A stretch of DNA of 64,000 nt, from NCBI GenBank assembly GCA_045598105.1, contig JAZLLK010000037.1, positions 34,264-98,263 on the forward strand, in the 5' to 3' direction. Below are positions 9,879 through 30,056 of the stretch, in pieces. Numbering within the stretch: position 1 is the first letter of the stretch; each line of letters opens with the position of its first letter. Position numbers and translations under genes: made by a program. The stretch comes from Bacteroidales bacterium. GTDB lineage: Bacteria; Bacteroidota; Bacteroidia; Bacteroidales; WCHB1-69. The notes under the pieces are model-generated. The model was not told where the DNA came from. It saw only the letters and a list, made by a program, of their open reading frames with translations, and did no database searches.

Positions 9879-9926
9879 TAACATTACGCAAGCATATTGC
9901 ATCGTATTTAATTGAATGTTAAACCA

Positions 9927-9951
9927 AAAGGAACCCCACAAGGGTTCCTTT
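9927..9951 (+). terminator. Intrinsic terminator after hydG
   Basis: AAAGGAACCC-CACAA-GGGTTCCTTT stem followed by GTTGTT. Confidence 0.7.
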
Positions 9952-9977
9952 GTTGTTATATCCGACCGTAACCGGTC

Positions 9978-10538
9978 TTGCAGTCATGCCAAACCCCGGA
10001 TATCAGCATCCCGGAACTTAGCGTATGCGGGAATAAAAAATTAAAGAAAAACAGGGACGGAAGGCCTTGCTACGCATGCTTATTGTATTCCTTCCGTCCC
10101 TAAAAAACACGCCACTTTCAGTGGCTGGAAAATTACTTTAACATACTTACTGCCAATGCTAAATAACTATATCACACACCATAATCGAGAAAAAAACGGA
10201 GGCATTTAACCTCAATTTTTAGTTTTAGCCAATGTTTAAAGGAATATCACCACGTTTTTTTCTGGTGAATTACCGTTAAAACGTTGAATATACAATGGTT
10301 ATAGAAAACAGAATTGGTTTTCTCGTCCGCCGAAGCGGGCGTGTTTTCTCGGGACGAAGGACTTATAAAAAGCGGGTAAATGCTAAATTTTATCTGCAAG
10401 CCTGCGGCTTGTGAGTAAAATTTAGCGTTACACGCTTAGTTGCCATAGGCAACAGTACATCGTCCCGTGTTTTTCTTTAATTCTATTCTGCTTTTGCAGC
10501 AAAAACTCCGTATACACTTAACACAGCGAATGCGGGAA
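9978..10538. repeat. Mosaic palindromic element, copy 1 (arm L 10041-10199, inverted arm R 10253-10480)
   Basis: Homologous to copies at 13274-14442 and 29044-29922; flanked by AGCGTATGCGGGA and AGCGAATGCGGGA. Confidence 0.9.
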
Positions 10539-10590
10539 GCATGCGTTGAAAGGCACTCAGATAGTGGACTTTAGATGATAATTATAGGCA

Positions 10591-13185
10591 TTACCAATTG
10601 TCATCCAGTTCCAAATCAGATTGTTTTTTTGTGCTGTTCAATTCCTTATTGGTAGGGGGGGCGGGGGTAGCGGAAGTGGTGCCGGCAGCGGCATCCTTCT
10701 TGGCTTTTTCCTGCTGTATTTCAAGCTTTTGCTCTTCCCATTTTCGTTTCATATTACGGTGTGAGGAATTGGAATCCCATTTAAATACGGGTTTGTCCAA
10801 ATTGCCTCCTGCCACCAAAAACAGGGTGGCTTTGCCGGTATTGTCATCTATTACCTCCCCAAAATCTTCGCGGTTGCGTTGGTTTGCACGTGCTTTTTTG
10901 CTAAGCAGCTCTCCCAATGATAATTGTATATGATAATCTATATCGTTATCAAAGGTGTGGGTGCCACCTATGGCCAAATTCAGCACATTGTTCCTAATAG
11001 CTATTTGCGGTATGGTAATGGTGCGGTTGGCCACGGATATTTGAGTGGATAGTGTTTCAAATTGTATGTTGTTCAGTTCATTAATAGATATGAATTTGGA
11101 CAAACTTTCCAAGGCTTTAAAGTTGATAAGTTTGCCGTTTTCTATTTTTAGGGCTATGGAGGCCGCTATGCTGTTTTGTATTAAATCCATATTGTTTTGC
11201 AGGGTAGCGTTGATTTGTGCGGAGCAGTCGGCGGTACCTTGCAGGTTTTTGTAGGTGAGCGACTGCTGACCAAAGTTATTGGTAGCGTAGAACAGCTTTT
11301 CTATGTTGATATGTTTCAGGTAGGTATTGCATTGTATGCCAAATTGTTTGTCGCCCAATGGGCGGAGGGTACAGTTGGCTTCCATTTTACCGTCAAAGGT
11401 GTTAATTTCAAATTGTTGTAAGCTCAGCGTGCCCTTATTCAGCAGCACGCGGCCGTAGGTTTTTCCGGCTTCAAATTTTTGGTAGGTGAATGATGCGGCA
11501 TTGAATGCCAAATCCATATAGATATGTTTGGGCAGTGCAAGCTGCATGGAGGTGCTTTTTTCTTTTTTGCTGTCAGCCTTGTGGTTATTGGTTTTAAGGA
11601 ATTCGTCCAATGAGAAGTTTTCGGTATTAAGGTTGGCTATCAGCCTAAGGTCTTCATTGCTATCCAGCAAATAGGGAAACAGGTTTTCTATGCGACCGTT
11701 CAGTTCAAGGGTGTTGTTTTGTATGGTTGTTTGTAAATGTTTGGCATATATAATGTGGTCCTGCATACTCACTTCACCCGACAGGTTGTTCAGGGTGTAG
11801 TCGCTATCTTTCAGCTGTAGGGTGGCATGTGCAAAGCTGACGGTACCTTGCATAAAGCTTTGGTTTAAATCGTGTACTGTAATATGCTCTATATCTGCAA
11901 ACTTATGTTTAAACAAAATCTTAATTTCCGCATCGCCGTCGGCATAGTGTATATAGTTGGCAGGCATAAAATTCTGCCAATCGTTCAACTGCAGGGTGGC
12001 TTCGGCGTTTATGTTTATTTGGGGCTGTTTCAGCCCTTCCATATCGGCTTGGGCGGTAATATATCCTTTATTCAGGCGGGCGGTAAGGGTGCTAATATTC
12101 ACTGCAAGGCTGTGGTTAATATCGGCGGTGTGCAGTTGGCAGGTGCCTTTCATACTAATATCATCCATGCTCACATGTGTTTGGGTATTGGCTATTTTTC
12201 CTTTTTGCAGTTGGTATTGGGCATGCAGGTGCATATCGCTTTTTTTGTCCAGCAGTCCGTCCACTTTTACGCTACAGGTAAGCTGTCCGTCGGGGGAGAA
12301 CATGCTCATTTTTTGCTGCAGGCTGTCGGGGAGTATGGTCGTCAGGTTTTTAATAGAGGCTTCGTTGGTGCCGGCCTGCAGGTGCAGGCGGAAATATTCA
12401 TCTTCCTTTTTTAGTTGCAAACCGAGCGTAAAATGCAGAAAATCAAACTTAAAATCACCTTTAGAAAAAGAATATTCTTCCGTATCGGTATTGATATGCA
12501 TAGTGGTGCTCAGTTCTACATTTTGGCGGGCGAGCAGCCGGGTATGGTTCACGTGAATGGTGTCTATGAGCAGGTTCCCTTTAATGTCGGCATGGAATAC
12601 GGCGGTGTCAAAATCGCCTTTGGCCTGTATTTTTTTAGCAAACACTTGCACATTCACCTGTGAGGGCATGTCATGGTAGCACACGTCCACCTGTTGCAGC
12701 AGTATGGTGTTAAGGGCTATTTTGAACCGGCTATCCGACACGGTATCCTCATGTATGAATATGTCCCAATTGGCTTTGCCTTTGGCGTTTACCGCCAAAA
12801 AAAGGCGGGCATGTGCTATTTCTACCTTACGCAGAGTGTAGTTGCCGCTTATAATGTCAGGCAAATTACACTGCAGATATACTTTTTGAGCTTCCAGCAG
12901 GTTTTGGGTGCCGCAGGCAGCCTGTACTGTTATATTATTTACCTCCAGTGAGGCACAAGGGAATCGCTTAATAAGTGAAAACGACACCTTTTCATGACTG
13001 ATATCCACGGTGGTGTAGTCGTATATTTTATGTAGAAACAAATCGGCTATTTTATCCTCAAAGGTAAAAGCTATGACAGTGAGTATAAGTATAATAGCTA
13101 CCATAACGGCCATAGTTATGCCCAAAATTCTGCCACAAATTTTCCATTTGCTTTTTTTTATGCTACCCAAAGTTGCTGTTGTCAT
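10591..13185 (-). CDS. AsmA-family protein
   Basis: N-terminal membrane anchor, beta-rich body, C-terminal GGTHTFDNDIDYHIQL AsmA-like region. Confidence 0.75.
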   Translation of the reverse strand: MTTATLGSIKKSKWKICGRILGITMAVMVAIILILTVIAFTFEDKIADLFLHKIYDYTTVDISHEKVSFSLIKRFPCASLEVNNITVQAACGTQNLLEAQKVYLQCNLPDIISGNYTLRKVEIAHARLFLAVNAKGKANWDIFIHEDTVSDSRFKIALNTILLQQVDVCYHDMPSQVNVQVFAKKIQAKGDFDTAVFHADIKGNLLIDTIHVNHTRLLARQNVELSTTMHINTDTEEYSFSKGDFKFDFLHFTLGLQLKKEDEYFRLHLQAGTNEASIKNLTTILPDSLQQKMSMFSPDGQLTCSVKVDGLLDKKSDMHLHAQYQLQKGKIANTQTHVSMDDISMKGTCQLHTADINHSLAVNISTLTARLNKGYITAQADMEGLKQPQININAEATLQLNDWQNFMPANYIHYADGDAEIKILFKHKFADIEHITVHDLNQSFMQGTVSFAHATLQLKDSDYTLNNLSGEVSMQDHIIYAKHLQTTIQNNTLELNGRIENLFPYLLDSNEDLRLIANLNTENFSLDEFLKTNNHKADSKKEKSTSMQLALPKHIYMDLAFNAASFTYQKFEAGKTYGRVLLNKGTLSLQQFEINTFDGKMEANCTLRPLGDKQFGIQCNTYLKHINIEKLFYATNNFGQQSLTYKNLQGTADCSAQINATLQNNMDLIQNSIAASIALKIENGKLINFKALESLSKFISINELNNIQFETLSTQISVANRTITIPQIAIRNNVLNLAIGGTHTFDNDIDYHIQLSLGELLSKKARANQRNREDFGEVIDDNTGKATLFLVAGGNLDKPVFKWDSNSSHRNMKRKWEEQKLEIQQEKAKKDAAAGTTSATPAPPTNKELNSTKKQSDLELDDNW

Positions 13186-13273
13186 GTATTTGCTGTATTA
13201 GTACAGCAAAAATAGTAAAAAATGATGTATAAGGTGACATGGTTTTAAAAAAAAATACGCACTTTATTTTGTT

Positions 13274-14442
13274 CATTAAATGTAGATGCCCATGTAGGCA
13301 CAGCGTATGCGGGGAAAATATTAAATTAAAGAAAAACTTTGGACGGAAGGCGTTGCTTATGCAACGGGAAGCCTGCTGCAAGGCAAATTTTCCTTGTAAG
13401 CCGCAAGCTTGCAGACAAAATTTCCCTTTTGCATGCTTATTGCCTCCCTTCCGCCCCTAAAAAAAACGCCACTTTCAGTGGCGAGAAAACTACTTTAATA
13501 CACGTTATGTCTATGATAATAAATTATATACCATACCATTATTGAGAAAAAAAACGGGGGCTGATCCCGTAATACGCCACATTATTGTTATGTTGATATA
13601 TTTATAAATAATTATGTTTAAATATGTTATAAATAAATTTTGTCAAATAGTGTCGATTTTTTTAATGTTATAAAAATCAACTATTTTAATAGTAAATTTA
13701 TAGTTCAATCTATTAATCAAAGGAATATCGTAATCATAGCATTATTCATATCTATTTACTTTCTTTGTCTTTCATACAAAGAAAGTAACAAAGAATTTTG
13801 CGATTAAGCTTTATACCAAGCAAGCCGAAGGTTTGTTTGGTTAAAGCGGAGCAAAATCACCGAAGGTAAAAATCACCGCGGAACCTCCATGCCTAAAAAT
13901 GAAGCATTTTTTTGCTAAACCGCTGATGCTGCTTTTCTTATGGTAAGTATTTACCATACTTTATATATTTATTCATACTTCAATAAAATCTTTTTCTATT
14001 CCCGTCGCAGCCGACATCGGTTCTTAACGCAAAAAATACATTATTTTCTATGGCATTCCGCTTATGCGGGTAGGTAGCCCTCTGTAAGAGGGCTTTAGGT
14101 ACACGTTATACCATATTTTAATTGTTATACCTACTCAATAATGGAACTCCGTCAATGTTTTTTTCTTGTGTATTACCTGTAAAACGCTTAATATTCATCG
14201 GTTATAGTAATGTAGAAATGGTTTTCTCGTTCTTTAGGGCGTGTTTTCTCGGGACGGGGTGCAGGTGAAGCAGGAGACCAAATGAAAAGTTTTGTCTGCA
14301 ACCTATGGTTGCAAGTAAAAAATCTTCGTTGGGCTCATATGTCGCTGCAAGCGACAAGTAACCCGTCCCGTGTTTTTCTTTTTTTTAAAAATTTCTGCTA
14401 TACCATTAAAAGGCGGTAATCCTGTAGGCACAGCGTATGCGG
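13274..14442. repeat. Mosaic palindromic element, copy 2 (arm L 13326-13557, box C about 13600-13690, module B 13756-14099 on +, arm R 14156-14388)
   Basis: Same arm architecture; exact 20-nt flanking direct repeat TGTAGGCACAGCGTATGCGG at 13293 and 14423. Confidence 0.9.
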
Positions 14443-14663
14443 TAATACCGTTTATTAACATTGCAATATGGTTGCAATGTTGGAATAATATCACGTAAAA
14501 AAACGTATGCGGAAACGCATTTTTTATCCTTCCTGCAATGAAGCAGTGGATAAGCCTTTTTTTAACTTATTTTGTAGAAAAAAATGTGATAAAAAACGCC
14601 TGATGTCTCGTTTTTTTTTAGTATTTTTGTTTTTTTTGGTAAAACATATAAAAGAATAATACA

Positions 14664-16277
14664 ATGACATTAGATTTAACACGTTACGGAATTGAAGGAG
14701 TGGAGGAAATTTACCACAATTTATCCTATGAAGAGTTATACAAGCATGAAACCAATCCTCAATTGGAAGGTTATGAAGTAGGTGAGCTCACTAATTTAGG
14801 TGCAGTAAATGTGAATACCGGCATATTCACAGGTCGTTCTCCTAAAGATAAATATATAGTAAGAGATGCCAACACCGAAAATACCGTATGGTGGGCAGGT
14901 GCTAATCGTAAAGGCTCTGATAACAAGCCTATTAGTCCGGAAGTGTGGGAAAGCCTGTTGGCCAACAGCTGCAAGCAGCTCAGTCACAAAAAACTGTATG
15001 TAATGGATGCCTATTGCGGTGCTAATAAGGATACCCGCTTGAAAATAAGAGTAATATGTGAAGTGGCATGGCAGGCACATTTTGTAAAGAATATGTTCAT
15101 ACGTCCCACCGAAGAAGAGTTGAAGGACTTTGAGCCTGATTTTGTTATGTTAAATGCTTGTAAAACAGTTAATCCTAACTGGAAAGAACAAAACCTGAAT
15201 AGTGAAGTATATGTTGCCTTCAATATTACCGATCGCATGGCAGTAGTAGGCGGCACATGGTATGGCGGTGAAATAAAGAAGGGATTTTTCTCCATTATGA
15301 ACTATTTCCTGCCTTTAAGAGGTATGGCCAGTATGCACTGCTCAGCCAATCAGGCACATGATGGCAGTACAGCCTTGTTTTTCGGTTTGTCGGGCACAGG
15401 TAAAACCACCTTATCGGCCGATCCTCGCCGTTTGCTCATAGGTGATGACGAACATGGTTGGGACGATGAAGGTATTTTCAACTATGAAGGTGGCTGCTAT
15501 GCCAAATGTATTAACCTCAGCAAAGAGCAGGAACCTGATATATACAATGCCATACGTAGAGATGCATTATTAGAGAATGTGGTAATAAAAGAGGACAAAA
15601 CTCCCGATTTTACCAGCGATGCACGTACCGAAAATACCCGGGTATCCTATCCTATATACCACATTAACAATATAGTAAAGCCTGTATCTAAGGGTACACA
15701 TCCTAAGGAAATTATATTCCTGTCGGCCGATGCCTTTGGCGTACTGCCTGCTGTAGCCCGCTTATCGGAAGAGCAAATGATGTATTATTTCCTCAGCGGT
15801 TACACCGCCAAATTAGCCGGTACCGAGCGCGGTATTAAGGAGCCTGTTCCTACTTTCTCATCCGCCTTTGGTGCACCTTTCTTATTGTTACACCCTACGG
15901 TGTATGCCGGTGAATTGCGTAAAAAAATGCAACTTCACGGCTCATCAGCTTATTTGGTGAATACCGGATGGGTAGGCGGTGCTTACGGAGTAGGCAGCCG
16001 TATAAGCCTTAAGGCTACCCGTGCCATTATAGATGCCATACACGATGGCAGCATTAACGACTGTGAATATGAAGAGCTGAAGCCTTTTGGCCTTATGATA
16101 CCCCAAGCATTGAAAGGTGTGGACAGCCAATTGCTTAATCCCCGCAACATGTGGGCTGACAAGGCTGCCTATGACAAGCAGGCTACCGCATTGGCACAGG
16201 CCTTCATTAAGAATTTTGAAAACTTCACCGATAACGAAGACGGCAAACGTTTGGTTAACTTCGGTCCCCAATTATAG
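14664..16277 (+). CDS. pckA: Phosphoenolpyruvate carboxykinase (ATP)
   Basis: [37 protein letters not shown]. Confidence 0.97.
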
Positions 16278-16283
16278 TGGTCC

Positions 16284-17192: not shown

Positions 17193-17297
17193 ATAGTTGT
17201 GTTAAATTGTATTAACATGAATATATACTAAAATAAGATATAAGTGTATAAAAAGTAACGTATTTTGATACACTTACCGGTATGAAATGATAATAAG

Positions 17298-18926
17298 ATG
17301 GACAGATTAACACCTGAGCAAAGGCACAGGAATATGCAAGCCGTAAAAGGTAAAAATTCAAAAATAGAACTGATACTCGGACGGCAATTGTGGAATAAAG
17401 GTTACAGGTATAGGAAAAATGATAAAACCGTATTCGGGAAACCTGATTTCACGTTTAAAAAGTACAAAATCGCCATATTTTGTGATGGTGAGTTTTGGCA
17501 TGGAAAAGATTGGAATATACGTAAAAATGATATTCAATCCAACCGGGAATTTTGGTATAAAAAAATAGAGGGAAACATAGAAAGAGACAAAAAAGTAAAC
17601 CGGACTTTAAAAGAACAAGGTTGGACAGTTATAAGATTTTGGGAAACAGACATTAAAAAAAACATAGATTTGTGTATGAGCAGCATTGAAAAAAAAATAA
17701 ATAAACATCAAAATATGAAAGAATCGGTCAATATAAAAACTGAAAAGACAATTGAACCCGTTTCCCGACCTGTCACAAACAATGATATGGCGATAATAAC
17801 GCACTATCTGTACCATAGAAAATCAAAATTTAAAAAAACATATATGGACGCTATCACTTTATTAAACAATTTACACGAAAACGAAAGAACTTCTTTGGAA
17901 GCTCTATTGTTCGGTGTGCCGTTTCCGCAACCGGCAAAACCGAAATTCACTTTTATTGACCTGTTTGCGGGAATAGGCGGTTTTAGAATCGCCATGCAAA
18001 ATCTGGGAGGTAAATGTGTGTATTCTTCCGAATGGGATACACAGGCTCAAAAGACTTATATGACTAATTTTGGGGAAGTTCCGTTCGGTGATATTACACA
18101 AGAAACCACAAAACAACATATTCCTGATGATTTTGATGTCTTATGTGCAGGGTTTCCATGTCAGGCATTTTCTTTGGCAGGAAAACGAAAGGGCTTTGAA
18201 GAAACCAGAGGAACCCTGTTTTTTGATGTTGCCGAAATTATACGTCGCAAACGCCCTAAAGCATTCTTCCTTGAAAATGTAAAAGGACTGAAAATACATG
18301 ACAAAGGAAAAACACTGGAAACCATACTTAACGTATTAAGAAATGATTTGGATTACTATGTGCCGGAGCCGCAAATAGTTAATGCCATGAATTTCGGTGT
18401 TCCGCAACACAGGGAAAGAATATACATAGTCGGATTCAGAAAAGATATGAATGTCAATTCGTTTACGTATCCCGTACCGACAGATACCACCAAACGCTTT
18501 ATAGATATACGTGAGGAAAACGAAGTGTCGGTAAAATATTATTTATCCACACAATATATACAAACACTCATTAATCATAAAAAGAGACACGAAAGCAAAG
18601 GTCACGGATTCGGATACGAAATAGTACCTGATGACGGTGTAGCTAACGCTATTGTGGTAGGAGGAATGGGAAGAGAAAGGAATATAGTTATAGATAAACG
18701 TTTAACCGATTTTACACCTGTTACCAAAATAAAAGGAGAAGTAAATCATGACGGTTGGAGACGAATGACCCCAAGAGAGTGGGCCAGGTTACAGGGTTTT
18801 CCCGATGAATTTATCATTCCCGTAGCTGACGTATCGGCGTACAAACAATTCGGCAACAGTGTTGCAGTGCCGGCCATACAGGCAACAGCTAAAGAGATAT
18901 TAAAAAGAATACTTAAAAATAAATAA
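17298..18926 (+). CDS. Vsr very-short-patch endonuclease fused in frame to an HpaII-like C5 cytosine methyltransferase (internal ATG 17715)
   Basis: Vsr motifs GKPDF and FCDGEFWHG; MTase motifs FIDLFAGIGG, GFPCQ, ENV and YKQFGNSV; TRD resembles M.HpaII (CCGG) as recalled. Confidence 0.88.
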   Translation: MDRLTPEQRHRNMQAVKGKNSKIELILGRQLWNKGYRYRKNDKTVFGKPDFTFKKYKIAIFCDGEFWHGKDWNIRKNDIQSNREFWYKKIEGNIERDKKVNRTLKEQGWTVIRFWETDIKKNIDLCMSSIEKKINKHQNMKESVNIKTEKTIEPVSRPVTNNDMAIITHYLYHRKSKFKKTYMDAITLLNNLHENERTSLEALLFGVPFPQPAKPKFTFIDLFAGIGGFRIAMQNLGGKCVYSSEWDTQAQKTYMTNFGEVPFGDITQETTKQHIPDDFDVLCAGFPCQAFSLAGKRKGFEETRGTLFFDVAEIIRRKRPKAFFLENVKGLKIHDKGKTLETILNVLRNDLDYYVPEPQIVNAMNFGVPQHRERIYIVGFRKDMNVNSFTYPVPTDTTKRFIDIREENEVSVKYYLSTQYIQTLINHKKRHESKGHGFGYEIVPDDGVANAIVVGGMGRERNIVIDKRLTDFTPVTKIKGEVNHDGWRRMTPREWARLQGFPDEFIIPVADVSAYKQFGNSVAVPAIQATAKEILKRILKNK

Positions 18927-18934
18927 CAGCTATT

Positions 18935-20089
18935 ATGAAAGAAAAGAAGGATATTAAACCCTTAAAGGGCAACAAAGGCGAATGGTCGGAAATATACATT
19001 TTTTTAAAATTAATGGAAGACGGCAAAATATATGCTGCCGATCATGATATGAAACGTATAAAGAATGTATTTCTTAATATATTGAAAATTATAAGAGAAG
19101 AATATAAAGGTGAAGTATATGAGTATTTTACCGGAAAAGAAATTGAAATACATTTGAATAACGAATGCGTACATATAGCAGATAAAGAATTATTTTCGGA
19201 CAATAGAAAATATATATGGAAAACCATAAAAAACTCAAAAGGAGGAATTATTGAATGCCCTAAAAGTAATGAATTTTTGAAGAGGATACACATAACAAAA
19301 TTAAAATCCCCGGCTACCTCCAAAAATGATTTCTTCGGTGGAACTCAGGATATTACTATGCAAACTCAGGATCATAGAAGTGGTGTTACTTCCGTTACGG
19401 GATTTTCCTGTAAATCGGATTTTGCAGGAAAATCATCATTGTTTAATGCCAGTAATGACAATACAAACTTTGTGTATGAAGTTACAGGCAATATAAATGA
19501 TACCGTTATGAATGAGTTTAACAACATATTTGATTCCAAAAAACATGTTGCAACCGGCAAAAGAATGAAGTATCTGAAAAAAAACCATTGCGATATAAGA
19601 TATATAGATACTGCAAAACCTAATGCAAAAAGGAACCTTATATTATCCGGAGGTATGGAACTTCCGCTAATAACAGGTGAAATGCTGAAGTATTATTATT
19701 ACATTCATAACGGGGAAGCGGCATATTCTTCCATAAAAAATGCACTCTCATACATAACTGACACCGATGTCGCTAAATATAATTGTGACGATTTGAGCAG
19801 TTTATACTCAAGAAAAATAGGTTCTTTACTGTATGATATGTTTACAGGCATGCGATTAAGTAAACCATGGAATGGAAGAAGCAGCGTTAACGGAGGCTAT
19901 ATAGTAGTTAAACCTGATGGAGATGTATTGGCTTACCATACCTGTATAACAGATGAATTTAAGGACTTTCTTGTAAGCAGATTAAGATTTGAGTCCCCAA
20001 GCGCAAAACGACATGAATATATGTCAATATATAAAGAAAACGATAAATATTATCTGAAACTCAGCTTACAGATTCGATTCAATAAATAA
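18935..20089 (+). CDS. HpaII-family type II restriction endonuclease
   Basis: N-terminal GNKGEWSEIY, GFSCKS, C-terminal LKLSLQIRF; follows the cognate MTase. Confidence 0.8.
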   Translation: MKEKKDIKPLKGNKGEWSEIYIFLKLMEDGKIYAADHDMKRIKNVFLNILKIIREEYKGEVYEYFTGKEIEIHLNNECVHIADKELFSDNRKYIWKTIKNSKGGIIECPKSNEFLKRIHITKLKSPATSKNDFFGGTQDITMQTQDHRSGVTSVTGFSCKSDFAGKSSLFNASNDNTNFVYEVTGNINDTVMNEFNNIFDSKKHVATGKRMKYLKKNHCDIRYIDTAKPNAKRNLILSGGMELPLITGEMLKYYYYIHNGEAAYSSIKNALSYITDTDVAKYNCDDLSSLYSRKIGSLLYDMFTGMRLSKPWNGRSSVNGGYIVVKPDGDVLAYHTCITDEFKDFLVSRLRFESPSAKRHEYMSIYKENDKYYLKLSLQIRFNK

Positions 20090-20097
20090 CATATTGT

Positions 20098-20493
20098 ATG
20101 CATACGCTCATAATGTCATTATTCACCCTCATAACACTCACCATGAACCATCCTATATATTTCTACAAAGGCAACAGCAACTACCGAAGTGACATACTCT
20201 ACACCTGGGACGGACAATACCTCTACCGGGGTAACAGCACTTACCGCTCCGATATACTCTATACCTGGGATGGAGAATACCTCTACAAGGGCAACAGTAC
20301 CTATAGGAGTGACATACTATATACCTGGGATGGCCAGTGGATATACAAAGGCAACAGCACTTACCGAAGTGATATACTATATACCTGCTCACAAGGGCAT
20401 ATATACAAAGGTAACAGCACCTACACCTGTGACATATTGTACACTACCGACGGCACTATACCCGTAGCAGTGCTCATGGCCGTAATGCCGTAA
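20098..20493 (+). CDS. Small protein with five tandem 20-aa repeats (YKGNSTYRSDILYTWDG)
   Basis: 60-nt period over 20161-20460 with many synonymous differences between units; hydrophobic N-terminus. Confidence 0.75.
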   Translation: MHTLIMSLFTLITLTMNHPIYFYKGNSNYRSDILYTWDGQYLYRGNSTYRSDILYTWDGEYLYKGNSTYRSDILYTWDGQWIYKGNSTYRSDILYTCSQGHIYKGNSTYTCDILYTTDGTIPVAVLMAVMP

Positions 20494-20582
20494 AAAAATA
20501 TAACCGAACATAAGCAAAAAAAATATATATTTGCACATATATAACAACATAAGATATAATATTAAAAAACAATAATATAAGT

Positions 20583-22634
20583 ATGCTTTATACCGATAAT
20601 TCATTCAAAAGACACACCATTACATCGGCATTACCTTATGCCAATGGACCCGTTCACATAGGTCACCTGGCCGGCGTATATGTTCCCGCTGATATATATG
20701 CACGCTATTTACGCCTTAGCGGCGAAGAAGTATTGTTCATAGGCGGTAGTGACGAGCATGGTGTACCCATTACCATAAAAGCACGTAAAGAAGGCGTTAC
20801 TCCACAGGATATAGTGGACCGTTACCATAATATAATTAAGCAGTCGTTTGAGGAATTTGGCGTAAGCTTTGACATATACTCACGCACATCCTCAGCCACA
20901 CACCATGAAACGGCGGCAGCCTATTTCAAAAAACTGTACGATGAAGGTAAGTTCATAGAACGCACCACCGAGCAGTACTATGATGAGGAAGCTCATCAGT
21001 TTTTGGCCGACCGTTATATTACAGGTACCTGTCCTCATTGCGGCAATGAAAGAGCATATGGCGACCAATGCGAAGCCTGCGGTACCAGCCTGAATGCGGT
21101 AGATTTAATTAACCCTAAGTCTGCCCTGAGCGGCTCCGTACCCGTGAAGAAAGAAACCAAACACTGGTTTTTGCCCTTGGGAGACTATGAACCTTTTTTG
21201 CGTGACTGGATACTGGAACAGCACAAGAACGACTGGCGTTCTACCGTGTATGGTCAGTGTAAATCGTGGATAGACATGGGCTTACAGCCCAGAGCGGTTA
21301 CCCGTGACCTGGACTGGGGCGTAAAACTGCCCATAGCCGACAGCGAGGGTAAAGTGCTGTATGTGTGGTTTGATGCCCCTATAGGCTACATATCCTTTAC
21401 CAAACAATATACTCCCGATTGGGAAAAATGGTGGAAAGATAAGGATACCAAGTTGGTACACTTTATAGGAAAAGATAATATAGTGTTCCACTGCATTATA
21501 TTCCCTTGCATGCTCAAGGCTGAAGGCAGCTACATACTGCCTCAAAATGTGCCTGCCAACGAATTTATGAACCTTGAAAACGATAAAATATCCACCTCAC
21601 GTAACTGGGCAGTATGGCTGCATGAATATTTGACCGATTTTCCGGGCAAACAGGATGTATTACGCTATGTGCTTACCTCCAATGCCCCCGAAACCAAAGA
21701 TAACGACTTTACATGGAAGGACTTCCAAGCTAAAAACAACAACGAACTGGTAGCCATATTGGGTAATTTTGTAAACAGAAGTGTAGTGCTTACGCACAAA
21801 TTCTATGGAGGCAAAGTGCCGGCACAAGGTGTACTTACCGATATGGACAGACAAATGATAGCCCAAATGGCTCAATATCCTGAACTGATAGGCCGCAATA
21901 TAGAAAAATTTCACTTTAGAGAAGCCCTGAGCGAACTGATGAACCTGGCCCGCCTCGGCAATAAGTACCTCACCGACAATGAGCCTTGGAAATTGGTAAA
22001 AACCGACCCGCAAAGGGTAGAAACCATTATGAACCTTGTATTGCAGCTGGCAGCCAATTTGGCCGTGCTCAGCGAGCCCTTTTTGCCGTTTACGGCACAT
22101 AAAATGCAAGCTATGCTGGGCCTAAGCCCCATGAACTGGCATCAGGCCGGCGGCATACAGCTATTGCCTGCCAACCATATCATAAGCGAAGCCGCCCTGC
22201 TGTTTGAAAAAATAGAAGACGCCGCCATAGCCGCTCAAATACAACGCCTTGCCGACATAAAAAAAGCCAACGAACTGGCAGCCTATACACCTAAAGCCGT
22301 AAAGCCGCTGTGCAGCTTTGACGACTTTGGTAAAATAGACATACGCGTGGGCACCGTAACAGAATGCTTTAAAGTGCCCAAAGCCGATAAACTGTTGCAA
22401 TTCCGCATTAACGACGGCGGCAAAGGCCGCACCATAGTGAGCGGCATAGCCAAATATTACCCCCATCCGGAAGAGCTGGTGGGCAAGCAGGTGTGCTTTA
22501 TAGCTAACTTTGCCCCCAAAAAACTCAAAGGTGTGGAAAGTGAGGGTATGATACTCTCCGCCGAAGACGCCGATGGACGCCTGGTACTCATCACCCCAAG
22601 CGACCTTGTGAAAAATGGTGTAAACATAGGCTAA
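20583..22634 (+). CDS. metG: Methionine--tRNA ligase
   Basis: [11 protein letters not shown], Zn knuckle, KISTS, C-terminal tRNA-binding OB domain; promoter TATATTTG at 20526. Confidence 0.97.
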
Positions 22635-22647
22635 ATTATTAGTACAC

Positions 22648-23556: not shown

Positions 23557-24531
23557 ATGTACACTTCCTCCGTCGGCATGAACAAAAAACCCGCACTATG
23601 GCTGCAAATAGCAGGCATAATAGCATTATACGCCATAGCGGTAAGTGCGGTAACAGGCATGTCGGCTACCCGCATACACTTTGCATTACTATGCCTTCCC
23701 GCCTCGTGGGCAGGCATATCCTTAGTTGTGTATAAGTGTGTGGTATTGCTACTATTAGCCGGAAATACAGCCGTTGTGGTATTGATGTTGCTACACCTTA
23801 ACCTTATAGAACTGCGTGACTATCGTTCTGCCATGTATTACCTGCTGTTGCATATACTTATACCGGATAGTATAACACTACCTGATATGCTGACAGAAAG
23901 CATGTTCTTATATATACTGCTGCCACGCCTGCTGGAGGTGAACACTACGGAACTGCATCAGGCTAACGCTCCTACGGGTGGATTTGTATTCGGATTTTGC
24001 TGCGGGCTGCTTGCCCTTATATACCCGCCCATGTGCATAGTGGCAATATTGTGGCTTTTGGTGAATATATTTTACCGAAACCTATCGGTAAAGACTGTAC
24101 TGCTCCCTGTTATGGGATTGGGAATCACCATATTATACGCATGGGCATACGCCTACATATTCCATCGTGTTATACACATTACCCCATGGTATTTCCGTTG
24201 GCAGGGCCAACCTGACCCCATGCACCTGATGGAATACATAAGCCGATTTATACTCATAGCTACCATGTGCTTTACCTTAGTGCTTATGCTGCGTAAAGTA
24301 GGAAAAATAGAAATGAACCGACGTAAAAAATGGTTTGTTCTTATTATCAACTATATAATACTGCTACCGGTAATGCTTCTGCTCAAAGACAGCTGGCATT
24401 TATATTATTCCATATGGATAATTATATGCTCCTTTATGCTAAACGTGTCCATGTATCATACCAAATCACCTGTGCTGCGTTATATACTCATATTATTAAC
24501 GATTATGGCACTATATATTAATTTAGTGTAG
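23557..24531 (+). CDS. Polytopic membrane protein (DUF6427-like)
   Basis: Hydrophobic throughout; starts immediately after the upstream stop. Confidence 0.5.
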   Translation: MYTSSVGMNKKPALWLQIAGIIALYAIAVSAVTGMSATRIHFALLCLPASWAGISLVVYKCVVLLLLAGNTAVVVLMLLHLNLIELRDYRSAMYYLLLHILIPDSITLPDMLTESMFLYILLPRLLEVNTTELHQANAPTGGFVFGFCCGLLALIYPPMCIVAILWLLVNIFYRNLSVKTVLLPVMGLGITILYAWAYAYIFHRVIHITPWYFRWQGQPDPMHLMEYISRFILIATMCFTLVLMLRKVGKIEMNRRKKWFVLIINYIILLPVMLLLKDSWHLYYSIWIIICSFMLNVSMYHTKSPVLRYILILLTIMALYINLV

Positions 24532-24534
24532 TGA

Positions 24535-25620
24535 ATGAAAAGAAAAATATTGTTTATAGCTCCACATCGTAAAGGAAGGTCGCCCGGGCAAAGGTTCCGA
24601 TTTGAACAATATATGGACTATTTGCAACAGAACGGATACCAATGTGATATGTCGTATCTTATAAGTGAAAACGATGATAAGTACTTCTATCAAAAAGGGC
24701 ATATTGTACGCAAAATGCTCATATATTGGAAATGTATATTCATACGTGTGCGTGATGTGTTGCGTGCCTCACAATATGACATTATATTCATATACCGTGA
24801 AGCCCTGTTTACCCGTTCCACCATATTTGAATACCTGTTTGCCCATATATGCAGGCACACCTTTGTTGATTTTGACGATGCCATATTCCTGCTGGACGTG
24901 TCTGAGGCCAACCGCAGCCTCAAATGGCTCAAGTCGCCATCAAAAATAAACAAAACCTTATCATATGTAGATATGGCCATAGTGGGCAATCGGTATTTGC
25001 ATGACTATGCTATACAATATGCCTCTAAGGTGCACATATTTCCCACCACACTGCACATGGACCACATACAGCTATATCCTCATGCTCCTTCGGAGCAGGT
25101 GTGCATAGGCTGGATAGGCAGTACCACCACCATTAAGCATATACGTTGGGCAGTGCCCATACTGAAAGCTATATATGAAAAATATGGCAACAAGGTGTGT
25201 TTTAAAATAATAGCAGACGTACAGCTGCAGGCGGAAGGGTTACCCATACTCAATGTAAAATGGGATCCCCTCACCGAAAGCCGTGAACTGTGCAGTTTTG
25301 ACATAGGCATAATGCCTTTGCCCGATGACGAATGGTCTAAAGGCAAATGCGGATTTAAAGGACTACAATGTATGGCTTACCACATACCCGTAGTTATGTC
25401 GCCTGTGGGTGTAAACACCCAAATAATACAAGACGGAGTAAACGGGTATTTGGCCACTAACGAGCAGGAGTGGCTGCAAAAAATATCTGCACTGATAGAC
25501 AATGCCGATTTGCGTAAGCAAATGGGAAATAACGGACGCCATACCGTAGAAACACGATATTCGTATCAGGCCCTTAAAGATGTATATTTAAACTATTTTA
25601 ACAGTTGTTTCCATGCTTAA
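24535..25620 (+). CDS. Glycosyltransferase family 4
   Basis: SPGQRFRFEQY, DFDDAIF, DIGIMPL, GKCGFK, SPVGVN. Confidence 0.9.
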   Translation: MKRKILFIAPHRKGRSPGQRFRFEQYMDYLQQNGYQCDMSYLISENDDKYFYQKGHIVRKMLIYWKCIFIRVRDVLRASQYDIIFIYREALFTRSTIFEYLFAHICRHTFVDFDDAIFLLDVSEANRSLKWLKSPSKINKTLSYVDMAIVGNRYLHDYAIQYASKVHIFPTTLHMDHIQLYPHAPSEQVCIGWIGSTTTIKHIRWAVPILKAIYEKYGNKVCFKIIADVQLQAEGLPILNVKWDPLTESRELCSFDIGIMPLPDDEWSKGKCGFKGLQCMAYHIPVVMSPVGVNTQIIQDGVNGYLATNEQEWLQKISALIDNADLRKQMGNNGRHTVETRYSYQALKDVYLNYFNSCFHA

Positions 25621-26212
25621 ATCCTATATGCAGGCGGGTAGAATAGAGGCAGGCTGTGATGAAGCCGGACGCGGTTGCCTGGCCGGCCCCGTGTGCGCCG
25701 CCGCCGTAATACTGCCCCCACATTTTTATAACGAAAATATTAACGACAGTAAACAACTTACCGAAAAACAACGTAATAGGCTGCGTATTGTAATAGAAGA
25801 GCAAGCCATAGCATGGGCCGTGGTAATGATACCACCCGAAACCATAGACGAAATTAACATACTACATGCCTCTATATTAGGTATGAATGAAGCCGTTCAC
25901 CAACTGAAAATACAGCCCCAACACCTGCTCATAGACGGTAACAAATTCACCGACAAATACCATATTCCTTACTCTTGCGTGGTAAAAGGCGACGCCACCT
26001 ACCTCAGCATAGCCGCCGCCTCCATATTGGCAAAAACCCACCGTGATGAATACATGCGGCAATTGGCCATGCAATACCCGCAATACGATTGGGACCAAAA
26101 CAAAGGTTATCCTACTGCCACTCATCGTCAAGCCATACTGCAATACGGCATTAGCCCTCATCATAGAAAATCGTTTACACTGCTACCGACACAACTAAAA
26201 CTTGACCTCTAA
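25613..26212 (+). CDS. rnhB: Ribonuclease HII
   Basis: GCDEAGRGCLAGPV, DSKQL, IAAASILAK. Confidence 0.96.
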   Translation: MLKSYMQAGRIEAGCDEAGRGCLAGPVCAAAVILPPHFYNENINDSKQLTEKQRNRLRIVIEEQAIAWAVVMIPPETIDEINILHASILGMNEAVHQLKIQPQHLLIDGNKFTDKYHIPYSCVVKGDATYLSIAAASILAKTHRDEYMRQLAMQYPQYDWDQNKGYPTATHRQAILQYGISPHHRKSFTLLPTQLKLDL

Positions 26213-27611
26213 TATGCCTGCTAAAGATGTGAACCTTAAATGGATAGTAGCTACCGGCATTACCTTGCTGACCGTAGCCGCCATAGTAATGGTGCTTATA
26301 CATATGTATGCCTACCTTAATGCACCATTTATTTCTCCCTATGCCGCTATGCCTACGTCTGCCGCCATAGTAGTGCACATGGATAGTAGCTTTTCACCCG
26401 CATCTTCCATGCTTCCCATAGAGGAAAATATAAATAAAGAATACAATTCAAAATTTGAACCATTACTTGAGAAAGCATATAGTAAATATCATTATAATAG
26501 ATATATAACAAATTCAAAAATATGTGTCAATTTCTATAACGGCCAATACGGTTTTATATGGATAGCCTTGGTAAATAAAGATAAGCTGAAATGGCTGGAA
26601 CAAACAATTAGTCGTGAAAATTTAAAGCGGATAAACTATAAGGATATAACCATATATGAAGATGCCGATATGTATTTTTATATATATCATAATCTTTTGG
26701 TAGCCTCACATCACACGGCTACACTTCGCCTGTCGGTAAATAGGCTCATATCCGATACCGCTGATTACCTGCAGCTGCCACCTGTGAATAAAGGCATGTG
26801 CGTAAGCTATTTGCCTGCCAATATGGCCGCTATGTCAGGCACGGGCTCACCCATAAGTTGTATAGATACCTCCTTATTCAGGCAAATAAACCTGTATTAC
26901 ACCTTGCACCATAATACCTACACCGGCAATGCCGATATATATACCTCACGCAAGTGTTCCCGTAAAGGCTTTCAATGTGATGTGAATAACTATTATGATT
27001 ACATTCCCTCCACAGCATCACAAATACTTATAATACAGGAAAATGCCTTTCAATGGTTACAGAATTACAATGAATTGTCAATAGAACAGAATAAATGGAT
27101 GCAGTACTTTCAGCCGCAGGCTATAGCCTGTGTGGATATTATAGGCAACCATAATCAACTGTACCATTATATTTTGCTTAAACCCAAGCATCCGGAGCAA
27201 TTGGCAGGCGATATGTTTTTCCTTACGGAAAAAAATGAGGAAACCGCCATAGGTGCCTTTGCCGGCTACGATACTTTTATGCTGCAAAATGTGGAAGTTG
27301 GTAGGGTAAACATACCCAATTTTATATATTTACGTTGGCACATAGCCTCCGGATTAAGTTATATGAAAAACTATGTAATAATGGACGACTACATATTGCT
27401 GGCTGCAAGTGATTATGCCATACAGGCATACCTGGAAGCACTACAACACACCTTACAGGAAAACCGCTACTATGTACAAAGTGATACCTACTTTACCTCT
27501 CAGGCCGACATGCTTTATTTTAATATGTCCGCAGGCGGCGTGTACCGCCTGCAAATGGAACAGCATGACGCCACTTCCTGCCTTATGCATGTGTATGCAA
27601 CCCCCAAATAG
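26202..27611 (+). CDS. Hypothetical protein with N-terminal membrane anchor
   Basis: 469-aa ORF in the operon; no recognised motif. Confidence 0.55.
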   Translation: MTSNMPAKDVNLKWIVATGITLLTVAAIVMVLIHMYAYLNAPFISPYAAMPTSAAIVVHMDSSFSPASSMLPIEENINKEYNSKFEPLLEKAYSKYHYNRYITNSKICVNFYNGQYGFIWIALVNKDKLKWLEQTISRENLKRINYKDITIYEDADMYFYIYHNLLVASHHTATLRLSVNRLISDTADYLQLPPVNKGMCVSYLPANMAAMSGTGSPISCIDTSLFRQINLYYTLHHNTYTGNADIYTSRKCSRKGFQCDVNNYYDYIPSTASQILIIQENAFQWLQNYNELSIEQNKWMQYFQPQAIACVDIIGNHNQLYHYILLKPKHPEQLAGDMFFLTEKNEETAIGAFAGYDTFMLQNVEVGRVNIPNFIYLRWHIASGLSYMKNYVIMDDYILLAASDYAIQAYLEALQHTLQENRYYVQSDTYFTSQADMLYFNMSAGGVYRLQMEQHDATSCLMHVYATPK

Positions 27612-27637
27612 TATTTATTCTTCATTCCTAATATACC

Positions 27638-27670
27638 TCTCCCATTTTTTTTCTCAAAAAAAATGGGAGA
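27638..27670. terminator. Hairpin between convergent genes
   Basis: Perfect 15-bp stem TCTCCCATTTTTTTT-CTC-AAAAAAAATGGGAGA. Confidence 0.55.
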
Positions 27671-27681
27671 AAGACAAAGTA

Positions 27682-28116
27682 TTAGTAATTTAGCGTAAGC
27701 GTAAGCGTGTTATAATCTATAATAGCATGATAGCGTAGCAGTATATCACTGCCTATAAGCCCCGCCACAGGCGGCAAATGCAGACCATGAAGCATGGTAT
27801 TAATATGGCTTATGTCTAACATAAGAAAAGGGTAGTGCCTAATATAAATATCACCTATACGCATGCCCGGCAACCTGTATAATAATGCCGGCTGCTGCAT
27901 GTCCTCACTGGCACTGAGCACCTTATCATCTATATTTACGGCATGCTGCTTATAACTTTCACCCGTTATGTGGGGCGAAAGACAGGAATGCGAGGCTCCG
28001 GTATCTATAACCATGCGTTGCATGTGTCGGCCTATTTTTACCGGCAATATCAGTTGTACATTCTGCTTGTTGTTTAAATATTGCAGCGTTAATGGTATTG
28101 TAGTAGTGGTCGGCAT
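27682..28116 (-). CDS. Retropepsin-like aspartyl protease
   Basis: VIDTGAS catalytic motif and GLIGSDIL. Confidence 0.85.
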   Translation of the reverse strand: MPTTTTIPLTLQYLNNKQNVQLILPVKIGRHMQRMVIDTGASHSCLSPHITGESYKQHAVNIDDKVLSASEDMQQPALLYRLPGMRIGDIYIRHYPFLMLDISHINTMLHGLHLPPVAGLIGSDILLRYHAIIDYNTLTLTLNY

Positions 28117-28892
28117 TAGTATATCAATGTTTTAATACCCCATGCACGCAGAGGGGCGGCTATGGTTTCCAATTCGTCTTTTTCTATTTTTACCAGCGAT
28201 TTTTCAGGCGTTTCTCTATCTATAGGATACAACATTACCGTGTGCGGATGTATACGCTCTATACGCTCCATCCAAGCTGCCAACTCCTCACCGCGGGTGT
28301 TATCTACCTTATAGTCATCATTATACCCTCTCAAAAAAAGCGTTTGTATAGTCAGCTTGCCCTTAAATTCACACAACCTATGGGTAATATCTTCTATATC
28401 TATGTGCTCAAACGGCTTATTTATAATGTCAAACATTTGCTGAGTACCTGCGTCTAACTTTAACATGGGATTATCTATTTTGAGCAAAGTACGCATTACG
28501 TCATCCCGATACAACTGGGTAGAATTAGAAAGACAGGATATAATGGAGTGAGGATAGTATTCATTCCTTAATTCTATAATTCTATTGGTAATAATTTCAA
28601 ATTCAGGATGAAGCGTAGGTTCACCATTACCGGAATAGGTTATGGAATCTATTACCGTACCCTCATCATGCATTTGCTTAAAGCGTTCTTCCAATACCGG
28701 TAATATTACATCAGCATGTAATAACTTGTCATACTTTACCTCCGATGTAAGCCCCCAACCACATTCACAATATATACAATTGAATGTACAGAACTTAATA
28801 TCTTCAGGCATAAGGTTGATACCCAATGAATTACCCAAACGACGACTATGTATGGGACCAAATATAATTTTATTAAATAATATTCCTGACAT
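28116..28892 (-). CDS. Radical SAM protein
   Basis: GPIHSRRLGNSLGINL, CTFNCIYC, SGNGEPTLHP; promoter TACCTTTG (28911-28918, minus strand) favours start 28892. Confidence 0.85.
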   Translation of the reverse strand: MSGILFNKIIFGPIHSRRLGNSLGINLMPEDIKFCTFNCIYCECGWGLTSEVKYDKLLHADVILPVLEERFKQMHDEGTVIDSITYSGNGEPTLHPEFEIITNRIIELRNEYYPHSIISCLSNSTQLYRDDVMRTLLKIDNPMLKLDAGTQQMFDIINKPFEHIDIEDITHRLCEFKGKLTIQTLFLRGYNDDYKVDNTRGEELAAWMERIERIHPHTVMLYPIDRETPEKSLVKIEKDELETIAAPLRAWGIKTLIY

Positions 28893-29043
28893 ATAGCTAT
28901 TATTTTGTTGCAAAGGTAGCATATTTTATGCTGTCAAACCCCAATTAAGGTCTATTTTCTTTTACCCTTAATACAAAAAAAAACAGCTACTGCCATAGTC
29001 CGAATAACGGCTTAAAGCAACGCTTATCGTCATGGTAGGGGTG

Positions 29044-29922
29044 TTGCAAGTCTGTAGTGGATATCAGCATCACAAGGCTTAGCGCATGCGGGAATAAAAA
29101 TTAAAGAAAAACAGGGACGGAAGCCCTTGCTACGCAACGGGAAGCCTGCACAGGAAAATTTTCCTTGCAAGCAGAAGCTTGCAGACAAAATTTCCCTTAC
29201 GCATGCTTATTACATTCCTTCCGTCCCTAAAAAACACGCCACTTACAGTGGCTGGAAAACTACTTTAACATACTTATTACAAATGCTAATTAACGGTATT
29301 ACATACCATCAGCGAGAAAAAAACGGGGGTAATACCGTAATTTCAAAGGTATAGCGTTTAAATTAAAATGCATTCCTAAAGCCCTCCTACAGAGTGCTAC
29401 CGACCCGCATAAGCGGTGATTTTTACCTTCGGTGATTTTGCTCCGCTTTAACCAAACAAACCTTCGGCTTGTTTGGTCTAAAGCTTAATCGCAAAATTCT
29501 TTGTTACTTTCTTTGTATGGCAGACAAAGAAAGTAAGTAGAAAGTAATAACAATATAATTCCGGTATTTGTAAATAATATGAGTATAATAACTTTAGTTA
29601 TAAGTACAACCTCTATTTAAAGGGTTGTACCACGTTTTTTTCTCGTGTATTACCGCAGGAACGTTAAATAAACAATGGTTATAAGAGAACAGAATTGGTT
29701 TTCTCGCCCGCAGAGGCGGGCGTGTTTTCTCGGGACGAAGTACTTATATAAAAAAGCGGGTAAATGCTAAATTTTATCTGCAAGCCTTTGGGCTTGTAAG
29801 GAAAATTTAGCGTTACACGCTTAGTTGCCGTGAGGCAACAGTACTTCGTCTCGTGTTTTTCTTTAATTAAATGTTGCTTTGCAGTGAAAACTCCATATAC
29901 ACTTAACTCAGCGAATGCGGAA
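29044..29922. repeat. Mosaic palindromic element, copy 3 (arm L 29101-29325, module B 29375-29536 on -, arm R 29633-29866)
   Basis: Close relative of copy 1 including both flanks; carries module B reverse-complemented relative to copy 2. Confidence 0.9.
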
Positions 29923-30056
29923 AAAAACAATTAAAAATGGAAAAATGTAAATATTTATAAATAAATGTATTGCAAATATTTTTTTGACAAATAGTGACAA
30001 AAAAACAGGAATATGAAGGGCGGTTTTTAGCGTATGCGAATGTAAAAAAATCGGCT

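Follow-up and report, generated by a model that had tools for sequence, protein, structure and literature searches.

In proteobacteria and streptococci, structured repeats scattered over the genome have been well described. The enterobacterial BIMEs combine REP with other motifs in mosaics, for which effects on termination and mRNA stability are proposed. The Correia/ERIC-type miniature inverted-repeat transposable elements (MITEs), 100–150 bp long, have short terminal inverted repeats and target duplications, and their ends fold when co-transcribed, affecting termination, processing and mRNA stability according to orientation. The IS110 bridge/seek RNAs and the HEARO/omega RNAs are structured RNAs of mobile elements, 150–300 nt long, with covarying stems; the HEARO RNAs were once known without a nuclease partner, which was recognised later. 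The REPINs are two inverted folded units with a spacer, occurring in tens of intergenic, mostly vertically inherited copies; they are described as within-genome sequence populations (PMC3116915, PMC3337134, bioRxiv 10.1101/2022.05.22.493013). The pneumococcal BOX (boxA-boxB-boxC) and RUP/SPRITE are modular intergenic repeats, BOX being predicted to fold stably (PMC3049150). The present work concerns a family of large non-coding mosaic elements, three copies of which are located in a 64,000-nt stretch (hereafter the window; contig C37:34264-98263) of the genome of a Bacteroidales bacterium of the WCHB1-69 lineage (assembly GCA_045598105.1, here G000; 2.31 Mb, 107 contigs, 40% G+C, 97% complete). 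The fold of the arms of these elements is conserved by compensatory change, and we read the family as a one-genus Bacteroidota analogue of the REPIN/BIME/BOX-type elements by architecture, not by sequence.

The family resembles the REPIN/RAYT system in its inverted folded pair with a spacer, its tens of intergenic, mostly vertically inherited copies and its within-genome sequence populations. In contrast to REPINs, each arm consists of a three-way junction, a hairpin and a 65-nt module (~240 nt) instead of an imperfect palindrome of ~20–40 nt, the left (L) and right (R) arms belong to distinct subfamilies (~70% alike), direct flank modules bracket the pair and no Y1/RAYT gene was found in G000. 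The description of the elements in the first-pass annotation as REPIN/BIME-like, albeit larger and multibranched, was apt, the units being much larger and more branched than REP/REPIN. With the BIMEs the family shares the combinatorial intergenic mosaics of conserved modules in fixed relative orientations, but its modules are far larger, include a three-way junction and come from Bacteroidota; the E. coli collection was not searched and the likeness is one of architecture. The BOX/RUP/SPRITE repeats are likewise modular, structured, intergenic and devoid of an own transposase, while BOX belongs to another phylum and has another sequence. The Correia/ERIC elements also have inverted ends able to fold in RNA, but the present family has no target duplication, its arms are far longer and it carries extra cargo modules. 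To our knowledge, neither an inverted-pair architecture nor outward terminator arrays nor a conserved junction has been described for BOX. The IS110 bridge/seek and HEARO/omega RNAs are comparable as multi-copy, mobile-element-like structured non-coding units with covarying stems; however, G000 yielded no DEDD or TnpB/IscB-type gene, large programmable loops were not observed and Rfam, HEARO included, gave no match. The family stands out by its unusual size and multibranching, by the strong comparative support for its fold, and by the combination of conserved chromosomal sites with genome-specific sequence, which needs gene conversion or re-use of landing sites.

Architecture and copy number of the elements

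The layout first noticed at three loci of the window (an L arm and an inverted R arm around a spacer or cargo, with a flank repeat at either end) is present as described, and a repeat finder recovered the L arms, the R arms, the flank repeats and an oppositely oriented common cargo (one stretch of 156 nt at 91% and a second one) there. A family profile built from the six window arms (cut-off E ≤ 1e-3) gave 43 matches in G000, the full arms scoring E 1e-47 to 1e-67, and manual merging left ~32 arm copies. Mapping eleven modules by blastn, combined with a word search, resolved 21 loci, two degenerate ones on contig C8 included, ten of which hold complete inward-facing L/R pairs. Most arms of G000 stand in such pairs, with direct flank modules around them, and the elements account for 0.65% of the genome. 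None of the 21 loci lies within a gene, and the occurrence between genes of all three relative orientations, reported initially for the window, holds across them (9 co-directional, 6 convergent, 5 divergent, 1 undetermined). The flanking genes, i.e. twenty flank proteins that were scanned and those in the window, are ordinary and unrelated, without a common function.

Two architectures were distinguished by the module map: type I (A, coreL, innerL, (K2', K1'), innerR, coreR, C), to which copies 1 and 3 belong, and type II (B, coreL, K3, (K1, K2), innerR, coreR, B), represented by copy 2. Both, and partial combinations of the same parts, occupy intergenic sites and carry no own gene. Copy 3 holds part of the copy 2 cargo as its reverse complement, and this opposite orientation reflects the two architectures, not an inversion.

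The flank modules A (~95 nt), B (~50 nt) and C (~60 nt) all end in TAGCGWATGCGGG, which has an identical orientation at both sides of every complete element. Since they are conserved in all copies and are also found solo (e.g. at C49:107013, C98:6177 and C8:5136), these modules are parts of the mosaic: the direct repeats noted earlier at the element ends do exist, but as ends of A, B and C and not as target duplications. The word ATGCGGGRA is strongly enriched in the elements, with 23 of its 51 genomic occurrences inside them, and words resembling the core (AATGCGGGA, CTGCGGGA) stand at module borders in the related genomes G005 and G007. The flank core TAGCGTATGCGGAGAG was additionally seen in the loop of a GGCTG..CAGCC hairpin at C31:31164, C31:32897 and C105:148 of G000, ~55 nt ahead of the start codon in paralogous open reading frames (ORFs) with no Pfam family; it might be a regulatory word common to the elements and to the leaders of these paralogous genes.

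Among the cargo modules, K3 (~140 nt, AT-rich, with TTGTCAAATAGTG and a GATTTTT..AAAAATC hairpin) is a part of type II elements and is also found solo in intergenic regions: at 36323-36441 and 43835-43956 of the window, with a partial copy at 29932-29984, and at C3:20910, C88:535 and C98:1464. One solo copy directly follows the tRNA gene 36088-36161. The K1 hairpin TTACTTTCTTTG..CAAAGAAAGTAA, with a further CAAAGAA word after it (window 13745-13885 and 29413-29541), is the only family part met in other genera and families, where it stands at the head of other repeats present in several copies, frequently at contig ends (loci examined: L011 in G010, L002 in G007 and L003 in G005). The sharing of K1, K2 and K3 was the one observation in favor of the cargo capture proposed in the first-pass annotation, but these modules also occur alone.

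Decay products in G000 include internal deletions between repeated words, an R arm on C88 which shrank to its two outermost T tracts, and an arm on C52 which is a chimera of two R subtypes. A degenerate relic lies at window positions 7800-7990, where the GTTTTTCTTA word and a small hairpin are followed by AAAGAAAAACA .. AAGAAAACACG and the helices are gone. A contig from sequencing run X1 has a better R-end and a B module ~370 nt upstream of 8400, and strains may differ at this place.

Conserved fold of the arms

From its outer to its inner end, an arm reads AAAGAAAAACA, the three-way junction, GAAAACAC, a GC hairpin (P4), GAGAAAAC, ~65 nt and GAGAAAAAAACG. The junction is formed by a closing stem (P1), a short hairpin (P2) and a long rod (P3) with a conserved tip. 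Both inverted arms start with an identical 13 nt, TTAAAGAAAAACA, and the helices are separated by repeated GAAAAAC linkers whose sequence is conserved. The common arm plan suggested at first is shared by the six aligned arms of the window; the L arm of copy 1 measures 95 nt instead of 162 and has lost its long hairpin by an internal deletion between two TACGCA words. In comparison with shuffled sequences, the L arm of copy 3 folded with z -6.2 on the plus and z -7.2 on the minus strand, and the whole of element 3 with z -14; in the predicted fold of the whole element the junctions stay local, while the A-rich linkers pair with the U-rich linkers.

A covariance model of the 165-nt core, built from ten L arms (R1), also retrieved the R arms and the diverged copies of the sister species. 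Over 46 pairs and 32 sequences, 93.4% of the alignment cells were paired, as compared to 73.0% in 500 shuffles, none of which reached the observed value, and sliding the partners by 1–3 columns as a control left 36–46% of the cells paired. Changes on both sides occurred in 35 of the 46 pairs, with a covariation score of 0.46 vs 0.15. P1 is formed by GGGACGGAAGG/CCTTCCGTCCC in the L arms, by GGGACGGGTTG/..ACCCCGTCCC in the Rc subtype of R arms and by GTCAGAGGATG/CATCCTCTGAC in the sister species, so that all eleven P1 pairs differ between the L type of G000 and the type of G005–G007, with linkers and rod tip unchanged. This wholly exchanged closing stem is the strongest single support for the fold. 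The spacing of the half-sites at the rod tip varies between subtypes, which suggests a hairpin and not a double-stranded operator. The strand reading from the outer to the inner end contains 36 A.C vs 18 G.U cells, favoring the outward strand as the folding one. In the tree, the L and R arms formed separate clades, in line with the subfamilies recognised initially. The R arms comprise at least three subtypes.

Distribution and site conservation

In a blastn comparison of copy 3 with 40 relatives, arms were detected in G000 only and the K1 hairpin in seven other genomes. Model R1 revealed core copies in G005 (6), G006 (1) and G007 (2), the three element-bearing sister species among the congeners (which also include G001 and G003); the family is thus present in 3 of 7 congeneric species, as diverged copies with a wholly different closing stem. 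The same model did not find the core in the 113 genomes searched from 21 other genera of the same taxonomic family. A second model built from all subtypes (R2) matched the same three congeners, gave one doubtful 28-bit match in G001 and had no match among another 150 genomes from the order. Scanning 185,579 species genomes with an exact pattern produced 40 single matches in unrelated phyla, close to the chance number that we estimated and set aside on that ground, and a stricter pattern had no match in metagenome and viral contigs. The rod-tip pattern matched three metagenome and six viral loci, all treated as chance; R2 fitted two of these nine (both metagenomic), only across the 30 pattern positions. 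Plasmids and phages had no blastn match to the family. The Rfam 15 search of the whole window at the gathering threshold returned one tRNA only, and at E ≤ 10 or 0.1 the three element regions and six related loci yielded only noise (e.g. microRNA models, MicA at E ~1). The initial view that this is not a named family is borne out by these searches; the literature searched yielded MITEs in the intergenic DNA of Bacteroidales for Porphyromonas gingivalis only. Sequencing runs of at least three studies of animal gut and faeces metagenomes contained close strains. The repeats break up metagenome assemblies, and family fragments are located at contig ends in G007 and G006.

The intergenic region to the right of the ThiH/HydG-like radical-SAM gene measures 712 bp in G000, ~135 bp in G003 and ~56 bp in G001, and the matching intergenic site has no element in the latter two genomes; an empty site with a single core was seen in neither of them. 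G007 carries its own version of the element at the ThiH-like site, while in G005 pckA follows the ThiH-like gene directly. Six of the nine flank-gene matches of the G005–G007 element loci are within 219 nt of a G000 element, and five G000 genes are found at the common sites (ThiH-like, pckA, AsmA-like, ABC/Wzt-like and pseudouridine synthase). Upstream of the ABC gene, the outer end of the arm faces the gene in all three species. Such sharing of sites with sister species points to a long residence rather than to recent hopping. In the tree, all G005–G007 copies belong to one clade with a branch of 0.86, apart from the L and R clades of G000, and common sites together with genome-specific clades imply either within-genome homogenisation of dispersed copies or re-used landing sites.

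The AsmA/YhdP-like gene (window 10591-13185, minus strand, 864 aa, weak matches only) stands between copies 1 and 2, which have the same orientation. In G005 and G007 its outer neighbors are adjacent with no such gene between them; the G005 orthologue (63% identity) is on another contig, directly downstream of family copies, and none was found in G007 with the G000 query. A relocation of the gene by recombination between same-orientation elements fits this pattern, and the family appears to mark gene relocation here. The read bins of elements were 3–10 times deeper than their flanks, in agreement with many copies. No empty-site joint across a whole element was present among 15 of the 19 joints from three DNA runs; the joints listed connect different family copies.

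Search for mobilising enzymes

The absence of a transposase noted at first for the window extends to its contig, on which none of Y1_Tnp, IS110, TnpB, DDE_Tnp_1, rve, resolvase and phage integrase was detected. A partner gene of RAYT, IS110 or TnpB type was not found in the 97%-complete assembly of G000: Y1_Tnp (PF01797) was missing in a search whose control matched 6 of 14 reference genomes, the IS110 domain (PF01548) was found neither in G000 nor in G006 and G007, and TnpB and PDDEXK_3 were not found in G000 either. DDE_Tnp_1, rve and resolvase genes of G000 were rejected as the copying enzyme, being unlinked to elements; the DDE copies are old (69% alike) and have nothing in common with the arms at blastn level. 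Two of the four tyrosine recombinases of G000 are long and not Xer-sized, and these two had no counterpart in G005–G007 at E ≤ 1e-30 and adjoin neither an element nor a core. No transposase locus with arm ends was found by blastn and nhmmer, which in a draft such as G000 is not a proof of absence. The mobile nature proposed in the first-pass annotation is consistent with the multi-copy, non-coding and modular organisation and with the element-free matching sites in G001 and G003, but no mobilising enzyme was found and a target-site duplication is absent.

In G005, one IS110-family transposase gene (348 aa; G005:C71:140065-143511, L139) is located at a distance of 720 nt from an arm. The region upstream of it is its own, looks structured and is not matched by model R2; a DUF559 endonuclease-like gene follows it, and the pair lies between two copies of the mini-arm module. 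Its own upstream region and nested position are read as an insertion into a repeat cluster. The protein had no tblastn match in G000 (best E 0.67). A guide function of the L-rod word TTACGCATGC, which resembles the flank core, was also considered and dropped, the word remaining constant when the middle base of the core changes.

Terminator-like sites and possible function

The region 9700-14800 contains 12 terminator-like sites as compared to 6.0 ± 2.6 in shuffled sequences, and the seven listed in the arms of copies 1 and 2 (six distinct) all face outward. These arm sites combine a GC-rich hairpin with a T/U tract in the manner of intrinsic terminators, and the junction is followed by TGTTTTTCTTTAA on the outward strand. 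The layout in G005, a mini-arm back-to-back with a junction arm, also yields T tracts towards either side. The asmA-like gene and pckA have their promoter boxes outside copy 2. Intrinsic terminators are known in comparisons for conserved U tracts with freely covarying stems.

We give about an even chance to the reading, drawn from sequence, that this lineage-restricted modular mosaic repeat blocks transcription from both sides and stabilises 3' ends. Each helix on the outward strand is followed by a GUUUUUC-type U tract; an arm would then work as up to three intrinsic terminators in a row, and transcription arriving from either side would be halted by a complete element, be it face-to-face as in G000 or back-to-back as in G005. 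A transcript crossing the center would end in the far arm and have a highly stable fold at its 3' end, in which the A-rich linkers zip with the U-rich linkers of the other arm. The copies would form a lasting 'sequence population' whose sites are largely fixed, possibly homogenised within a genome by inter-copy recombination or gene conversion, or by a trans-acting enzyme recognising the folded single strand, and might also serve as rearrangement substrates. If the arms are indeed tandem terminators, they would offer portable insulators against transcription from either side, in a phylum for which few parts have been characterised.

Several observations weigh against the barrier reading. Termination alone leaves the conservation of P2 and of the P3 tip sequence unexplained, which keeps alive the idea of a specific partner. 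The radical-SAM gene to the left of copy 1 has its own terminator (9927-9951), and 5 of the 20 typed loci are between divergent genes, where a terminator is needless. The RNA data consisted of assembled contigs of one metatranscriptome, in which the single contig on an element (10153-10319, depth 2.3) was no deeper than the neighbor genes and may represent DNA or read-through. A rod U.G that 28 of 29 sequences retain favors the inward strand for folding and makes the strand ambiguous, while the 32-sequence alignment used for covariation was fitted to the model and includes only ~5–6 independent subfamilies. Finally, family searches in G000 did not reveal a copying enzyme, and no strain-level presence/absence was seen among the read joints listed.

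Two other readings also build on the conserved fold. Each arm might be a gene or a cis element for a structured RNA needed by the host (a multi-copy small RNA or protein-binding RNA), the pair being transcribed divergently, with the junction and rod tip as the functional core and each RNA ending at the junction plus U tract. Covariation combined with conserved unpaired motifs is the usual signature of a functional RNA, the junction followed by UGUUUUUCUUU resembles the 3' end of a small RNA, the sites are beside corresponding genes in three species, and the excess of A.C over G.U cells on the inward strand means that the outward strand pairs better as RNA. The outward terminator-like sites fit the divergent structured RNAs suggested initially, but no conserved internal promoter box supports them: TAnnTTTG, the Bacteroidota -7 consensus, is missing from copies 1 and 2 and occurs once in copy 3 without the -33 TTTG. 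Furthermore, the spacer of copy 1 is only ~25 nt long, the G005 arms are in tandem and not divergent, many of the ~30 copies are truncated, chimeric or internally deleted as in decaying repeats, no Rfam family matches, and the sole metatranscriptome contig on an element is no deeper than the genes nearby, which together make a host RNA rather unlikely. Doubtful as well is a folded recognition substrate (RNA or single-stranded DNA) of a recombinase/nuclease system, i.e. a RAYT-independent REPIN-like partnership in Bacteroidota. Were it true, the partner would keep ~30 dispersed copies at conserved sites evolving in concert, the invariant rod tip and the GAAAAAC words would be explained, and the arms would constitute a new class of structured mobile-element nucleic acid; a protein partner, if it exists, would be a new enzyme to find.

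Less probable still are two explanations based on DNA ends. The arms could be the ends of a transposon-derived MITE whose autonomous parent, either some other IS or one of IS110 type having a structured guide RNA, was lost from these draft genomes or left unassembled in them. The inverted arms with their identical first 13 nt look like terminal inverted repeats, the family is multi-copy, restricted to one lineage and breaks assemblies, as seen from the contig-end fragments in G007 and G006, and the G005 IS110 gene is near an arm. But this gene has an unrelated upstream region of its own and is nested as if inserted into repeats, its protein has no match in G000, and the IS110 domain was not found in three of the four element-bearing genomes; copy-specific target duplications were not seen, the flanks being conserved direct modules, changes in the flank core are not matched by changes in the arm loops, and the DDE copies of G000 are old and unlike the arms, so a MITE origin is judged quite unlikely. 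Very unlikely, in our estimate, are integrase-less cassettes undergoing Campbell-type recombination at TAGCGWATGCGGG, with attL/attR-like flanks and GAAAAAC as arm-type protein-binding sites. The single orientation of the core at both sides of every complete element, the enrichment of ATGCGGGRA, the solo flank modules, the core-like words in G005 and G007 and the four tyrosine recombinases all speak for such cassettes; against them stand the confinement of the two long integrases to G000, away from elements and cores, the lack of a single-core empty site in G001 or G003, and the identical core in 5' leader hairpins of unrelated paralogous genes, where it may be a regulatory word. Compensatory stem changes are also not expected for double-stranded protein-binding arms.

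Parts of the three window copies

The coordinates of the parts are given in Table 1. With its flank module included, copy 1 starts near 9956 and not, as first annotated, at 9978.

Table 1. Modules and terminator-like sites of the three element copies (window positions; bit scores from the covariance models, those marked R2 from the second model).
Feature	Position	Strand	Remarks
Copy 1 flank module A	9956..10033	+	ends in TTAGCGTATGCGGGAAT; blastn module map (C37:44219-44296), core motif list
Copy 1 L arm core	10041..10135	+	three-way junction truncated, P3 deleted, P4 present; 92 bits
Copy 1 L inner module	10136..10215	+	ends in GAGAAAAAAACGGAGG; terminator-like hairpin on - strand 10213-10199
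Copy 1 R inner module	10240..10314	-	arm alignment, module map
Copy 1 R arm core, subtype Ra	10315..10480	-	three-way junction and P4; 80 bits, 127.7 bits (R2)
Copy 1 R terminator-like site	10324-10341	+	P4 then TGTTTTCTC
Copy 1 flank module C	10481..10540	+	ends in CAGCGAATGCGGGAAG; repeat finder, module map
Copy 2 left flank module B	13262..13318	+	ends in CACAGCGTATGCGGGG; repeat finder
Copy 2 L arm core	13326..13492	+	complete three-way junction and P4; 181.8 bits
Copy 2 L inner module	13493..13580	+	terminator-like sites on - strand: 13483-13467, 13570-13554
Copy 2 cargo module K3, AT-rich	13585..13725	+	repeat finder, module map
Copy 2 cargo module K1	13745..13885	+	hairpin TTACTTTCTTTGT..ACAAAGAAAGTAA, then ATTTTGCGATTAAG, second hairpin, AAAATCACCGAAGGTAAAAATCACCGC
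Copy 2 cargo module K2	14040..14112	+	CCGCTTATGCGGG and hairpin AGCCCTCTGTAAGAGGGCT
Copy 2 R arm, subtype Rc	14140..14383	-	inner module and core 14219-14383; 55.6 bits, 102.3 bits (R2)
Copy 2 R terminator-like site	14228-14241	+	within Rc arm
Copy 2 right flank module B	14392..14445	+	repeat finder, module map
Copy 3 flank module A, 3' part	29059..29094	+	ends in TTAGCGCATGCGGGAAT; repeat finder, module map
Copy 3 L arm	29101..29322	+	core 29101-29262, inner module 29263-29322; 185.6 bits
Copy 3 cargo modules K2 and K1, reversed	29375..29541	-	repeat finder, module map
Copy 3 R arm, subtype Ra	29636..29866	-	inner 29636-29695, core 29696-29866; 86.1 bits, 138.3 bits (R2)
Copy 3 flank module C	29878..29923	+	ends in CAGCGAATGCGGAAA; repeat finder, module map

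Other features of the window and genome

The cumulative GC skew peaks at ~20000-21500 of the window (C37 ~55 kb), turning from positive to negative, and may mark the replication terminus; five family loci are within 55 kb around the peak. The agreement between element orientation and GC skew (18 of 22 rows, 10 of 13 contigs) was too weak for a claim. The C36 element, made up of A, coreL and K3, has a Cas6b gene (G000 C36:61638-62333) ~500 nt downstream, close to a contig end. An unrelated repeat of ~250 nt at G000 C63:47128-47377 has copies on C55, C38, C72, C6 and C30, several of them 91–99% identical, and some of its copies are at contig ends, beside an IS4/IS5-like DDE gene. Within the window, a single ORF at 17298-18926 fuses Vsr, DUF559 and C-5 cytosine methylase domains, and four tandem 60-nt repeats (66–77% identity to the reference copy) occupy positions 20157-20447 inside the ORF 20098-20493.

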